A stretch of DNA of 64,000 nucleotides from a virus. A model generated the notes under the pieces. That model ran no database searches and was not told where the DNA came from. It saw only the letters and a program-made list of their open reading frames with translations. Each line of letters starts with the position of its first letter. The stretch's first letter is position 1. The stretch lies in IMG/VR virus record IMGVR_UViG_3300022745_000021, positions 1 to 64,000 of that record. The stretch is one strand, 5' to 3'. Shown here in pieces: positions 28,925 to 62,944 of this stretch. A program made the position numbers and the translations under genes.

Positions 28925-29026
28925 GGTCTCCTCGCTTGTGGTCGGGTCCGCTGCCACGGCCCCTTGCTGATCTTTCATACCACAATCGGGGTACGTGTCA
29001 ACGAAATCCCGCTGCAACTGGTTGCA
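28925..29026 (-). promoter_or_regulatory. Promoter-leader cassette
   Basis: TGCAACTGGTTGCA upstream; TTGACA-16-TATGAA; hairpin CCG-TGGCAG-CGG; GAGGAGACC RBS. Confidence 0.75.
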
Positions 29027-29029
29027 ACT

Positions 29030-29368
29030 TCACGCCTTGGCGAACTTGCCGCGCCCTTCTTGGCCCGGGTACTCGCGCGGGTGCTTGTCGGGGTTCTCGG
29101 TGATCCAGTGCCGGAAGTGCATGTCGAAGTAGTAGACCACGACCGTCTCGCCGGTGAGCTTGGGGTGGGGCCGTTTCTTGGACTGCACCGGCCAGCCCAG
29201 CGCGCGAAGTTCGCTGGCGCGGGCGTTGATGGTGAGGAGGTTCATTTCCATGAGCGAGGTGAACGGGTCGATCTGCTCGCCGTTCAACAGCCGGGACAGC
29301 AACGCGTACTGCTTGGTGCCCTCCGACGGGATGTGGGGGGCCGAAATAGGGGGTGCCGCAACTGCCAC
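29030..29368 (-). CDS. Winged helix-turn-helix protein
   Basis: Q...LL..L..G..I...........ARASELR..GW-x-V...V..Y pattern of small phage wHTH proteins. Confidence 0.7.
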   Translation of the reverse strand: MAVAAPPISAPHIPSEGTKQYALLSRLLNGEQIDPFTSLMEMNLLTINARASELRALGWPVQSKKRPHPKLTGETVVVYYFDMHFRHWITENPDKHPREYPGQEGRGKFAKA

Positions 29369-29386
29369 GTTGGTTCTCGGCGCCGG

Positions 29387-29842
29387 TCAGGCTTCGGGCC
29401 AGTGGTCGAGCACCGAGCCGTCGATCTGCACGGTGATCTCGTCCTGCCCCTTTTGCAGGAAAATCTTGGTATAGGGCTTGCGCGTCGAGCTACCCCGGCT
29501 GACGATGATCCGGTAGCCCTGCTCGATGTAATCGCGCACCTTGGTCACCATCGGATGCTCGTCGAGGCCCATGGTGGCGACGATCTCCGCGTTCACCGCG
29601 ATGTTGCCGCCGCGCCCGTCGAGGCTGGAGGGCTTCTGCGCGAACGTGCTGATGAACCCGAGCGCCCGCGTGAAGAACACGCGCAGGTGCGAAGGATAGG
29701 TCCCGGTGACGTACATATATGCGGCCCGGTCGCGAAGATCACGGTAGCCCTTCGATCGCGTGTCGCGCAGGACCATGCTGATCTCTTGCTGCAACTCGGT
29801 CGGATTTGCTTGGCCGGTGGCCGAGCCTTGCGCTGCGTTCAT
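29387..29842 (-). CDS. Hypothetical protein
   Basis: GGAGG RBS; coding-like bias. Confidence 0.75.
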   Translation of the reverse strand: MNAAQGSATGQANPTELQQEISMVLRDTRSKGYRDLRDRAAYMYVTGTYPSHLRVFFTRALGFISTFAQKPSSLDGRGGNIAVNAEIVATMGLDEHPMVTKVRDYIEQGYRIIVSRGSSTRKPYTKIFLQKGQDEITVQIDGSVLDHWPEA

Positions 29843-30149
29843 GTATTACCTCCATCTGGCCGTCCCCGACGCGGCAATATTGTGCTGGTTTGCCCGAACT
29901 CACCCGCGCTGCGCCGCAACATGCATCCAGTGGTGTTGCGCTACCGCATGGCGGAACATTTGTAAATAGCGTTCGTGTTACCCAGACATTGCCTGTCGGA
30001 AGATATGGCCTCGGTTTTTTCCTACGGGTGTAGCTGCAACGGGTTGCAACTTACTTGTAGAACCCTACACGTGTTGGAAAGTTCCGTAGAAAATAGGGCA
30101 GGGGGGCAGTCACCCGCCCCCCGCATACAAATACCTGTTAACGAATGAT

Positions 30150-30413
30150 TTAGCGCAGGAAAACCGGCAGCGTCCCGGCGTAGGTGAGGTGGCACACTTC
30201 CTCGGGGAACACCGTGTCACCGTCGATGCTGGTCACGGTGCCGATCTCGTCGGTCTCGAAGCACTGCAATCCGCCGTCCTCGTTGACCGCGCCGACGACA
30301 AGATAGGCGCCGACCGGAAAAATGTGATCCTCGGGGACCATCCGGTACGCGTCGGCGTAACCGCAGAAGACCAGCCGGGAGCCGACTTCGATCTTCGTGT
30401 CCACTTGCTGCAT
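30150..30413 (-). CDS. Hypothetical protein (87 aa)
   Basis: ATG at 30413 with GGAG RBS; divergent from the 30537 gene. Confidence 0.65.
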   Translation of the reverse strand: MQQVDTKIEVGSRLVFCGYADAYRMVPEDHIFPVGAYLVVGAVNEDGGLQCFETDEIGTVTSIDGDTVFPEEVCHLTYAGTLPVFLR

Positions 30414-30536
30414 TGCTATCGTCTCCGGGCCGCGATAGCGCGTTTCATGCGCCGAGCGCGCGCCGTCGTCAAGATTACGCGTGACGGGTGCATGCGTTCC
30501 GGGTAGGTTTGACGTTGAAACGGAACAGGAGCGTTG

Positions 30537-30956
30537 ATGGCCCGCGAGCGTAAGTTCGATACCGAAGCGCATGACGCCGCCGCCGAGATTGCCGACAGCA
30601 TCGTCGCTTCCGTGGACGGCCGGGCGACGGGCATCATCGTGGGCATGCGCGCGTATCGCAAGGGTCAGCGCACCCGCGATCCCGAACTGGCGCGGCTCGA
30701 AGCCCAGCTGGCCGAACTCAAGACCAAGCTCGCCGTGGCGGAAAACAACAGCGTCGGCACGTGGACGCCGTACGAATGCCAGCACGTCGCGACGCTGCAC
30801 AAGTATGGCATGAAGCTGGCCGAGATCGCCAAGCTCACCGGCACCAGCGTGGCGCAGGTGCGCGAAGCCTTGCGACTCAACAAGGACAAGCGCTTCCGCA
30901 CCGCGTCCGACCGGCTGCCGCCGGTGCCGGGCCGCCGGCAACTCGACGCCGACTAG
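30537..30956 (+). CDS. Coiled-coil + C-terminal HTH protein, putative regulator
   Basis: AGGAG RBS; WT-x-x-E...L...GM.LAEIAKLTGTSVAQVREAL HTH; one of only two convincing plus-strand genes. Confidence 0.75.
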   Translation: MARERKFDTEAHDAAAEIADSIVASVDGRATGIIVGMRAYRKGQRTRDPELARLEAQLAELKTKLAVAENNSVGTWTPYECQHVATLHKYGMKLAEIAKLTGTSVAQVREALRLNKDKRFRTASDRLPPVPGRRQLDAD

Positions 30957-31160
30957 GCGCAGCTGCGCGCTCGGAGTCTGGCTCCATTTAACATAAGAAG
31001 CATTATCGTTCCCAGATCGGGTATGGTGCGAAGGGGTAGGGGTCGATGGGGTGATAGGGGTCGCTCCTCTGGCTGATTGGAGCCTTCCCCCTACACAAGT
31101 ACCCCCGCGCGGGCAAGCCAAACCGGTTGCAACTGGTTGCAAAGTCAGGGTTTGTGCGCG

Positions 31161-31292
31161 TCAGCGGTGCCCGTTCACCGCCAGCAGGATCGGCGCGGCG
31201 AACCCCGCGATCAGCAGCAGGCAAATCCACGCGACCGCCAGACGCCGGCCGATGTCGTGGTGCACGTCAACCCGCCGGACCGCGCGCTTCAC
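31161..31292 (-). CDS. Small membrane protein (43 aa)
   Basis: GTGA overlap with the thyA stop; MKRAVRR...[22 protein letters not shown] hydrophobic helix. Confidence 0.55.
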
Positions 31293-61589: not shown

Positions 61590-61873
61590 GCTACGATCTC
61601 CCCGGCCGGGTGGGTGTAGACCGCGCTGCCGGTCTGGAGCACGCGGCGCTCCTGATCGAGCGCGGTGATCTCGGCGGCGATGCCGGCGGCGCGGTCCTGC
61701 GCGTCGAACAGCGCGATCAGGGCGCGGGCCTGCGCGATGCGGCCCCGGGCGTTGTGGTAGAGGCGTTCGCGGCGCACTTCCTCGCCGACGGCGAGCATCA
61801 GGTCGATGTCGAGCAAGCCGATCGCGTGGGTGATGGCGTCGATGCGGGCTTCGGTGACGGTCTGGAACGACAT
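61586..61873 (-). CDS. Helical hypothetical protein
   Basis: First gene of cassette 61879-61951. Confidence 0.75.
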   Translation of the reverse strand: MSFQTVTEARIDAITHAIGLLDIDLMLAVGEEVRRERLYHNARGRIAQARALIALFDAQDRAAGIAAEITALDQERRVLQTGSAVYTHPAGEIVA

Positions 61874-61878
61874 GGTAT

Positions 61879-61951
61879 GGTCTCCTCGTATCGGGCCGGG
61901 ACTGCCTTCCCTGCCGATGACCTTTCATACCACGCCGGGGGTACGGTGCAA
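61879..61951 (-). promoter_or_regulatory. Promoter-leader cassette
   Basis: TTGCAC-16-TATGAA; ATCGG-CA-GGGA-AGGCAG-TCCC-GGC-CCGAT; GAGGAGACC. Confidence 0.8.
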
Positions 61952-61970
61952 GCGAAAAGTGCGGGCGGCC

Positions 61971-62213
61971 CTAGAGCAGGCCCTCTTTTTTCGCGAGCCA
62001 GCCTTGGATCGAGACCGTCCCCGCGCGCTTGCCCCGGTAGTCGGGGTGGTCGCTCACGCCCTCCTCGTGGAAGTCGGCTTGGCTCTTGGGGAACCACATC
62101 GGCGTCACGACGCGGGCGAGCTTGAGCAGGTAGCTCCGGTCGCTTTCCTTGACGACGATCGCGGCGGCCTCGTACGGGGGCGTTTCGCGGCGAGCGGTGT
62201 AGCCTAGGGCCAT
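61971..62213 (-). CDS. Hypothetical protein
   Basis: AGGAG RBS; KES.RS...WFPKSQ...WLA.K.GL, similar to the C-terminal module of gene 55097-55606. Confidence 0.7.
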   Translation of the reverse strand: MALGYTARRETPPYEAAAIVVKESDRSYLLKLARVVTPMWFPKSQADFHEEGVSDHPDYRGKRAGTVSIQGWLAKKEGLL

Positions 62214-62223
62214 GGGTATACTC

Positions 62224-62439
62224 CTACTTGCGCTTGCCCCGCGCCCGGCGGCGCTGGCGCTTGGTCTGGGGCACGGTGCTGGTGAAGCGTTCGACGTTGC
62301 GGTCCGCGATCGGCGTGTTCCAGCCGGTGTCCGGCCTGCCCCGACGGGGATAGCCGAGCAGATCATCGAACGGACTGTCCATCGGGACGCCATACGACGT
62401 GGCGGTGAGACCAATGGCGTAGGCGAGTGCGGGGAACAT
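62224..62439 (-). CDS. Hypothetical protein with basic C-terminus
   Basis: Operon position; QRRRARGKRK tail. Confidence 0.5.
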   Translation of the reverse strand: MFPALAYAIGLTATSYGVPMDSPFDDLLGYPRRGRPDTGWNTPIADRNVERFTSTVPQTKRQRRRARGKRK

Positions 62440-62447
62440 ACGGCGCG

Positions 62448-62819
62448 TCAGTGCACGTCCTGACACATGATTGTCCGGGCACGGTGTCGCACATTGCTGA
62501 ACGCATCGTCTAGTTGTTCGCGGGTCAGCCCCGACGACGACACGAAAACAACCGGGCGGGGCGGCGGGGTGATCCGCTTCTCGCATACCCATGCCAGCGC
62601 CAGCAGGGCGACGGCGACCGGCAGCAGCAGCGCGGCGAGCAGCCAGTCGTGATGCCCGAAGGCAAAGCCGGCGACGGCGCCGGTGACGAGCGTCAGCCCG
62701 CAAGCGACGCTGGTCAGTGCGGCGTAGCCCCGGTGGTAGTACTCGCCGGTGTGCTTGTCCTGCGCGTAGCCATTGACATAGGCGCGGGCTATAGGGATCA
62801 GGTAGTGTAGCGGCAACAT
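62448..62819 (-). CDS. Membrane protein (2 TM)
   Basis: GAGGAG RBS; two hydrophobic segments. Confidence 0.7.
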   Translation of the reverse strand: MLPLHYLIPIARAYVNGYAQDKHTGEYYHRGYAALTSVACGLTLVTGAVAGFAFGHHDWLLAALLLPVAVALLALAWVCEKRITPPPRPVVFVSSSGLTREQLDDAFSNVRHRARTIMCQDVH

Positions 62820-62944
62820 GTGGGTGTCTCCTCGTCTCTGCCAAGAACACATGTAGCCTACACATTAGCGGGCGTCAAGCGGCTTGGTTCCAGCCCGTGC
62901 TACGATTTTCCCGGCTCGCGCTTTACCGTTGCAACTGGTTGCAC

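Follow-up and report, generated by a model that had tools for sequence, protein, structure and literature searches.

An RNA hairpin with the hexaloop AGGCAG, carried on stems of differing sequence, recurs in early leaders of the phage genome IMGVR_UViG_3300022745_000021. We analyzed the first 64 kb of this single 104,959-bp contig (66% GC), referred to in the following as the window, and all of the evidence is in silico. Positions are those of the window unless a genome position is named. Judging by folding and a covariance model, the same hairpin starts at least 12 early messages, at their predicted 5′ ends, and it is probably a functional structured leader RNA. We describe it as a new and lineage-specific motif of leader RNAs that may form half of a viral tag-and-key control, of which the other half would be a small RNA encoded by the phage itself.

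The leader hairpin and its compensated stems

Eleven near-identical leader hairpins were found, all on the minus strand, which carries nearly all genes of the phage. Ten of them lie in the window and one at genome position 67,941, and there are two or three weaker variants in addition. An earlier reading made from the letters alone, here called the sequence-only reading, had listed 13 hairpin sites, and each of these was present at its place on the minus strand:

61890–61918, minus strand: leader hairpin, loop at 61902–61907; closing GGGA/UCCC versus GGC/GCC elsewhere, fully compensated; 10 bp, −12.5 kcal/mol; 50.7 bits
60871–60896, minus strand: leader hairpin, UCGG..CGGC[AGGCAG]GCCG..CCGA; 8 bp, −13.8 kcal/mol
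59496–59513, minus strand: leader hairpin, GGCGGC[AGGCAG]GCCGCC; 6 bp; ribosome-binding site 1 nt downstream
57403–57428, minus strand: leader hairpin, GCAGGGC[AGGCAG]GCCCUGC; 7 contiguous bp
56833–56857, minus strand: leader hairpin, GGGG..GGGC[AGGCAG]GCCC.CCCC
55624–55645, minus strand: leader hairpin, GG.CGGGC[AGGCAG]GCCCG.CC
54785–54814, minus strand: leader hairpin, CCGG...GGC[AGGCAG]GCC..CCGG; the GGCA unit occurs three times, so that two folding registers are possible
52629–52651, minus strand: leader hairpin, GCGGU.GGC[AGGCAG]GCCACCGC
51956–51991, minus strand: leader hairpin, AUCGG...GGC[AGGCAG]GCC...CCGAU; core at 51960–51987
49405–49436, minus strand: leader hairpin, GUGUAGGG.GGC[AGGCAG]GCC..CCCUAC(GC); 12 bp, −18.4 kcal/mol; promoter type differs from that of the other copies
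35097–35114, minus strand: variant hairpin, GGGGC[a-AGGCAG-c]GCCCC; 5 bp, 8-nt loop; 22.2 bits
28944–28962, minus strand: variant hairpin, GGGGCCG[UGGCAG]CGG.CCC; 6 bp and a bulge; 23.9 bits; precedes a 574-aa gene upstream of the portal gene
62835–62846, minus strand: weak variant, UCU[UGGCAG]AGA, 3-bp stem; GGCAG 7 nt past the −10 box and 4 nt before GAGGAGAC

In minimum-energy folds, AGGCAG formed the hexaloop of 11 leaders. The 10-mer GCAGGCAGGC has ten exact copies in the window, and every one of them falls within the 49.4–60.9 kb interval of the minus strand. The bare hexamer WGGCAG was not enriched (79 observed, 68 ± 8 expected), so the signal resides in the hairpin context: when closed by at least four contiguous pairs, the hexamer occurred eight times on the minus strand and never on the plus strand, compared to 0.95 ± 0.97 occurrences, with a maximum of 4, in shuffled genomes. 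The covariance model, a check named in the sequence-only reading, recovered 11 copies at 38–53 bits and four weaker ones (at 28,9xx, 35,0xx, 35,7xx and 51,4xx), all of them on the minus strand. Among the three sites that had been put forward as variants, those at 35103 and 28951 held up as hairpins, with a 5-bp stem under an 8-nt loop and a bulged 6-bp stem, respectively. The third, at 62838, has a weak stem of 3 bp; it is not convincing as a hairpin and is better classed as a linear leader, a type described below.

The stems differ between copies in a way that preserves pairing. In an arm-swap test, cognate 5′ and 3′ arms gave −13.0 kcal/mol versus −9.6 kcal/mol for non-cognate arms, an advantage of 3.4 kcal/mol that none of 20,000 permutations equaled. 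When the arms were aligned independently of structure, 77.1% of cells were paired, compared to 66.0 ± 2.9 in shuffles, and the covariation score was 0.160 versus 0.055 ± 0.022 in shuffles (0 of 500) and 0.005–0.063 in slid controls. RNAalifold, run on a MAFFT alignment, detected the inner 4 bp (the GGC/GCC pairs) alone, because the outer stems are out of register in that alignment, and the arm-swap test and the symmetric alignment were used in its place. At 61902, 35103 and 28951 the closing pairs are altered on both sides in a compensating manner, and the loop is retained. Divergence has been free in the outer stems, the linkers and the centers of the spacers, while the 12-mer core, and above all its loop, is unchanged.

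The hairpin is part of a larger repeated cassette. The cassette frequently opens with a TGCAAC-N3-GTTGCA palindrome or a GC-rich hairpin and T-run, after which come cTTGACn, a 16-nt spacer (GTACC-N8-GG) and TAYNNN. Downstream of this promoter motif follow gAGACAUC, the hairpin, 0–10 nt, the ribosome-binding site (RBS) GAGGAGACC, 6–9 nt and the start codon, and the position of the hairpin is constant relative to the promoter motif, the RBS and the start codon. The stem, imperfect and 6–12 bp long, has its first paired base 1–14 nt (median 6) past the −10 motif, approximately 0–5 nt from the predicted start, which places it at the predicted 5′ end. In the folds the RBS is left unpaired, so the hairpin alone does not occlude translation. 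On the point that a structured element of the mRNA strand, with a fixed loop and compensated stems, sits between a promoter-like motif and the RBS, the sequence-only reading is thus borne out by the arm-swap test and the pair counts. It had also supposed that the element marks a set of early genes, and the genes behind the hairpins are indeed mostly orphans: they are small and have no Pfam or PHROG function. Small orphan genes are typical of early phage genes. The supposition that the element was probably undescribed agrees with a search of Rfam 15, in which no family matched at the gathering score over the whole window and none at E ≤ 1 over 49,300–62,950.

One observation concerns the gene start behind the variant hairpin at 35103. 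Positions 35071–35087 (minus strand) hold GAGGAGAC and, at the usual 5-nt spacing, ATT instead of ATG, GTG or TTG. The frame behind it reads ...FIADTH..., which is metallophosphoesterase-like, and the start codon may be non-canonical. Pfam returned no match for this open reading frame as cut.

The two-part leader tag and a candidate small RNA

GGCAG is not confined to the hairpins. Of the 28 GAGGAGAC sites on the minus strand, 20 have it in the 30 nt before them, where 1.66 would be expected (P = 5e-19), and at these sites it has a mean unpaired probability of 0.77, against a background of 0.52. Three of the eight remaining sites have GGTAG instead (P = 3e-5), which brings the total to 23 of 28; GGTAG is one of only two single substitutions that would still pair with CUGCC, through a U–G wobble. 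About ten leaders without a hairpin keep GGCAG or GGTAG unstructured just upstream of the RBS. In these hairpin-less leaders GGCAG is found 3–13 nt before the RBS and 6–8 nt past the −10 motif, which corresponds to the predicted 5′ end. Examples in the window are:

38402–38409, minus strand: linear leader, GGCAG, 3 nt, GAGGAGAC; GGCAG at the predicted transcription start
near 39256–39260 and 35776–35781: further linear leaders
upstream of the RBSs at 46444, 42413 and 51468: GGTAG variants

Since the motif is also present in leaders that have no hairpin, the conserved unit is better described, going by the sequence pattern, as a two-part leader signature, GGYAG followed by GAGGAGACC, which is either linear or has its first half in the hexaloop. 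The sequence-only reading had taken the hairpin to be the recognized unit; that the hairpin is structured stands, whereas the tag describes the unit better. A separate arrangement is seen at 51459–51528 on the minus strand, where an intercistronic hairpin precedes the gene at 51,452. Its GGCAGGGCAGGGG arm pairs with its CUGCCCCGCCCUGC arm, so that GGCAG pairs with CUGCC within one RNA, and GGTAG and the RBS then follow.

A possible partner for both halves of the tag is encoded at 33.8 kb:

33775–33899, minus strand: candidate trans-acting small RNA, ~125 nt, with a promoter-like motif, two exposed loops and a terminator
33906–33934, minus strand: small-RNA promoter-like motif TTGACA-17-TAGTTT, overlapping the stop codon of the upstream gene
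33780–33814, minus strand: small-RNA terminator hairpin, GC-rich, with a U5 tail

The predicted RNA folds at −66.3 kcal/mol (z = −5.42), which none of 200 shuffles matched. Its first apical loop is UCUCCU, an anti-RBS sequence at 33868–33873, and including the flanks the match runs to GGGUCUCCUC, which is complementary to GAGGAGACCC; 3 nt beyond this anti-RBS stretch there is a CUGCC. The second apical loop, at 33834–33841, is the octaloop CUGCCAAU, which contains CUGCC and is thus anti-GGCAG. Both loops have an unpaired probability of at least 0.9. The locus holds the only complement of GAGGAGAC on the minus strand of the 105-kb genome, and no other of the 4,194 minus-strand windows shows both motifs in apical loops.

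The upstream minus-strand gene ends at 33,909, and codon-position GC indicates that 33,300–33,900 is non-coding; a plus-strand open reading frame opposite the small RNA was rejected on the same grounds. The surrounding stretch at 33277–33908 comprises ~630 nt without codon periodicity, with a GC content of ~46% at 33,420–33,659 and further TTGAC-type promoter-like motifs, possibly a regulatory region or an origin.

In the small RNA and in the leaders, the two motifs are arranged as antiparallel pairing would require. Calculated duplex energies were −8.3 kcal/mol for the loop–loop contact, −17.2 kcal/mol for the RBS and −23.4 to −28.5 kcal/mol for contiguous pairing on linear leaders. When the small RNA was co-folded with 120 gene starts, the top three targets were linear GGCAG leaders (−23.5, −19.6 and −18.1, with a median of −5 overall), and hairpin leaders co-folded with it at −9 to −14. 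The in silico picture is that of two-site antisense control, with two exposed segments in antiparallel order, one of them against the RBS. This type of control is established for the c4 RNA of phages P1 and P7, which acts on the ant/icd leader, and for OxyS, which acts on fhlA. As in those systems, two stretches of a leader, the RBS among them, would be paired by two exposed parts of one small structured RNA, with at least one contact mediated by a loop. The phage differs in that the tag stands in approximately 23 of its own leaders rather than in one operon, and in that one segment is held in a hexaloop hairpin with covarying stems. The small RNA has no sequence similarity to c4 or OxyS, and the phage case is in silico only.

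We propose that the stem provides a base-paired 5′ end that would stabilize the early mRNA, while keeping GGCAG exposed in the loop. If expressed, the ~125-nt small RNA (33,899–33,775) could dock with its CUGCC loop on the GGCAG loop through a 5-bp kissing contact, and its UCUCCU loop and flanks would pair with the RBS, blocking ribosome entry and turning the early set off together. On linear leaders, the pairing would be contiguous, running through the anti-RBS stretch and on to the second CUGCC 3 nt further. We advance this mechanism, a kissing dock on GGCAG together with covering of the RBS for a joint early shut-off, as a tentative explanation. We are more hesitant about its fullest form, which we regard as possible: that a virulent-type phage RNA reads the GGYAG + GAGGAGACC tag in approximately 23 of its own leaders, in 12–13 of them by kissing a 5′-terminal hexaloop, and silences the early set post-transcriptionally.

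Several points weigh against the involvement of the small RNA. The support comes from one metagenomic genome with predicted transcription starts, and no relative examined has the hairpin or the small RNA, which leaves no covariation across species to draw on. The cores that would pair are short (5 and 6–10 nt) and GC-rich. Windows with both motifs in loops are expected 0.24 times genome-wide, which makes the coincidence modest when taken alone (P ~0.1), and the locus had been singled out beforehand, which carries a risk of selection. Co-folding cannot model kissing contacts, and for the hairpin leaders it predicted pairing with the RBS alone. In the Rhizobium phage RHph_I4, a long fixed RBS context, GGAGAACCACC, is present in 16 copies and has no antisense partner, showing that a conserved extended RBS needs no small RNA. 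Finally, the small-RNA promoter is constitutive-looking and would make the RNA at the same time as its targets, and an additional argument about timing is needed. Temporal shut-off of early phage genes is usually credited to proteins, such as repressors, nucleases (T4 RegB) and RegA-type translational repressors, and to our knowledge the antisense RNAs described from phages each control a single operon.

If the proposal is correct, the phage governs more than 20 of its own leaders with a self-targeting small RNA, by way of a modular tag; this would be a compact and portable tag-and-key system that controls many genes simultaneously after transcription. The two partners are short and defined, so that compensatory mutations would test it directly. 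The hairpin does not depend on the link to the small RNA: it is a cis-regulatory RNA motif that is new, well supported and absent from Rfam, and its paralogous copies, of which there are at least 12, covary clearly.

Alternative readings and known systems

The leader could instead be an operator for a protein, with a phage or host RNA-binding protein reading the AGGCAG loop, or single-stranded GGCAG in the linear leaders, and controlling translation or stability. Protein-bound hairpins are classically recognized by a loop that stays fixed while the stems vary. Furthermore, the unit at genome position 67,941, which is the first in the direction of transcription, encodes a possible arginine-rich RNA binder directly behind its hairpin leader: P0005 (genome 67764–67916, minus strand) is an arginine-rich orphan of 50 aa with a net charge of +6. 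However, basic orphan proteins are common in phages, and searches with P0005 found neither a homologue among 5.8 billion proteins nor a match in Pfam or the PDB. The 98 phage proteins matched 39 Pfam families, and there was no RNA-binding family among the 25 of these that were listed. A protein operator would also leave unexplained why the same genome has a structured RNA with both complementary motifs in its loops, and we consider it rather unlikely.

It is also unlikely, and to our minds a little more so, that the hairpin is a 5′ stabilizer or insulator and nothing else. The stem would then guard against end-dependent decay and keep the RBS free of pairing with the coding sequence, and the identical loops and GGC/GCC pairs would reflect recent copying or homogenization by recombination of ~100-bp promoter-leader modules. 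Hairpins at the 5′ terminus are established stabilizers, with ompA as the standard example, and the phage stems resemble them in starting within a few nucleotides (1–14, median 6, past the −10 motif) of the predicted 5′ end and in leaving the RBS unpaired; it is also the entire cassette that is repeated, not the loop alone. Stabilizers of the ompA type are marked by a stem about 0–4 nt from the real 5′ end and by a longer half-life; they need no specific loop, whereas the phage loop is invariant and recurs elsewhere without a stem. Recent copying fits poorly with outer stems, linkers and spacers that have diverged around a fixed loop, and with three variants that alter the stem and keep the loop. 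Nor can stabilization explain GGCAG or GGTAG in approximately ten leaders that have no hairpin.

The sequence-only reading had compared the element to boxB, and in design the likeness is real. In a nut/boxB- or put-like antitermination system, the nascent RNA would make the polymerase resist terminators between the early units. The hairpin directly follows the promoter, several cassettes have terminator-like hairpins and T-runs immediately upstream, and the small arginine-rich protein encoded at the first unit could be a counterpart to N. The lambda nut site combines a boxB with a GNRA-like pentaloop (of the GAAAA or GAAGA type), a boxA a few nucleotides 5′ of it, and the N protein. The first two of these defining features were not found in the phage: the loop is a hexaloop, AGGCAG in 11 copies, that is not GNRA-like, and the conserved 5′ flank, GAGACAUC, holds no CGCUCUU-like boxA. 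The copies number at least 12, not one or two, and each unit has its own promoter, which makes read-through unneeded. Antitermination does not account for the tight link between the motif and the RBS either, and we regard it as very unlikely.

Least probable of those considered at length is a DNA operator resembling the stoperators of Cluster A mycobacteriophages, in which GGCAGGCAGGCC would be an asymmetric duplex site and a bound repressor would block elongation past the promoter. The 12-bp asymmetric core is present in ~11 copies, all in transcribed intergenic DNA and in a single orientation relative to transcription, as such a site would require. However, the sequence outside the 12-mer covaries for pairing, which a duplex site does not need, and the variants at 61902, 35103 and 28951 change both half-sites in a complementary manner. 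Moreover, the distance of the GGCAG core from the promoter varies from +1 to about +20. Two further candidates were rejected. Promoters of the N4 type depend on a giant virion RNA polymerase and have DNA hairpins upstream of the transcription start, but the giant 3,449-aa open reading frame of this phage is a tail fiber, and no RNA polymerase is among the Pfam families listed. Sites for CsrA/RsmA have a GGA core in a hairpin loop (A-N-GGA-N), but the AGGCAG loop lacks GGA, and AGGA occurs in the RBS only.

A fixed motif that includes an RBS is also known from Cluster K mycobacteriophages. The start-associated sequence (SAS) of these phages is a 13-bp motif, GGGATAGGAGCCC, 3–8 bp before the start; approximately half of the copies are preceded by an inverted repeat, forming an extended SAS with 17-bp conserved inverted-repeat arms and a variable spacer, and its function is still unknown (PMC3203893). 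The phage tag resembles SAS in being a multi-copy motif of one orientation just before the starts of non-structural genes. It is the reverse of the extended SAS in that its loop is conserved and its arms vary with compensation, and its fixed motif is GAGGAGACC. The sequences and the host phylum differ as well, and the phage copies each carry a promoter.

The small RNA can be compared to the cuckoo or alpha-r14 family (NfeR1, CcsR; RF02344), whose members have 2–4 adjacent hairpins, each with CCUCCUCCC in a loop of 9–27 nt (PMC4615179). The phage RNA has in common with them hairpins placed side by side, stems of variable sequence, an apical loop that is C/U-rich and anti-RBS, and an alphaproteobacterial setting. 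In contrast to the cuckoo RNAs, the phage RNA has a single UCUCCU hexaloop, and its second loop is different (CUGCCAAU, with CUGCC). It scored 15.8 bits against RF02344, where the gathering score is 58.8 (E = 3, not significant). By sequence, the phage RNA appears to work like the cuckoo family in design without being a member.

Searches for relatives of the phage covered several collections. There was no nucleotide match among 50,697 phage records, and protein scans of IMG/VR found no relatives. IMG/VR, metagenome contigs and GTDB genomes, when scanned for the exact pattern, yielded only scattered single matches in unrelated taxa, with no second copy by the covariance model, and these were taken as chance. 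A gene fragment of Brevundimonas phage Delta is 71% identical and has no motif. One hairpin-led gene has homologues, P0002–P0004, on short assembled contigs, with 42–62% identity. The nearest portals, ~52% identical, are those of the Rhizobium phages RHph_I4, L338C and P11VFA (~109 kb). In the first 50 kb of RHph_I4, its early region, there was no covariance-model match, and the leaders are short, without a hairpin or GGCAG. A candidate small RNA in RHph_I4 was rejected, as the sole coding-strand complement of the RBS motif in the whole genome is the RBS of the single opposite-strand gene. That gene, EVC24_128 (45193–45405), has a standard GGAGAACCACC-ATG context 29 nt inside the annotated open reading frame, and its start seems to be annotated too far upstream.

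Promoter motifs and genome setting

The promoters of the cassettes are host-type and σ70-like in their conserved motifs (TTGACN, 16 nt, TGGTAYNNN), from which the starts are predicted, and TGGTAY looks like an extended −10. A scan for a strict generic consensus flagged only one cassette promoter, so the promoter calls rest on the conserved phage-specific motif. An inverted repeat, TACC-N8-GGTA, spans the spacer and −10 region and is common to 15 promoters. A repressor acting in early shut-off may use it as an operator, or it may simply reflect the extended −10 (TGGTAY) with a conserved spacer.

59522–59549, minus strand: early promoter-like motif, example; cTTGACa, 16-nt spacer with GTACC-N8-GG, TAYNNN; 15 copies in the genome
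28993, 35148, 35806, 44662, 46489, 51137, 52683, 55673, 56888, 57451, 59541, 60922 and 61943 in the window, and genome positions 67979 and 98420: promoters with TACC-N8-GGTA

A second conserved promoter class, TTGACGTAGAAAC...GCTATAC, is found at 38445 in the window and at genome positions 89069 and ~97680. This class drives the linear leaders of the form GGCAG-N3-5-GAGGAGAC, which rank first among the predicted targets of the small RNA.

Copies of the palindrome TGCAAC-N2/3-GTTGCA are very numerous throughout the genome, with ~50 TTGCAAC per strand; examples in the window are at 60940–60954, 55701–55715 and 52029–52043. It often lies just upstream of early promoters with a T-run behind it, which gives it a terminator-like appearance. 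The palindrome is also found in RHph_I4, and this recurrence suggests a conserved protein site or a terminator. Near some promoters there are motifs resembling CACGTGTAGG or CCTACA(C/T)GTGTAGG (49440–49470, 62860–62880 and 42420–42460 in the window, and several sites in RHph_I4), and these may represent a different, middle or late, class of promoter or operator.

The DNA of the phage is present in two freshwater metagenome runs, and contigs from both of these DNA runs showed no variants across the hairpins. Its host is probably an alphaproteobacterium of fresh water with a high GC content. The genome is that of a tailed phage, encoding a portal, a tape measure, a tail tube and a lambda J-like tail fiber, and Pfam matches also identified a thymidylate synthase, a ribonucleotide reductase, a family A DNA polymerase and a DnaB-like helicase. 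The J-like central tail fiber (646–10995, minus strand) has 3,449 aa, which is very long for a siphovirus; its N-terminal 750 aa match J-type tail tip families, and the remainder matches tail-fiber repeats.

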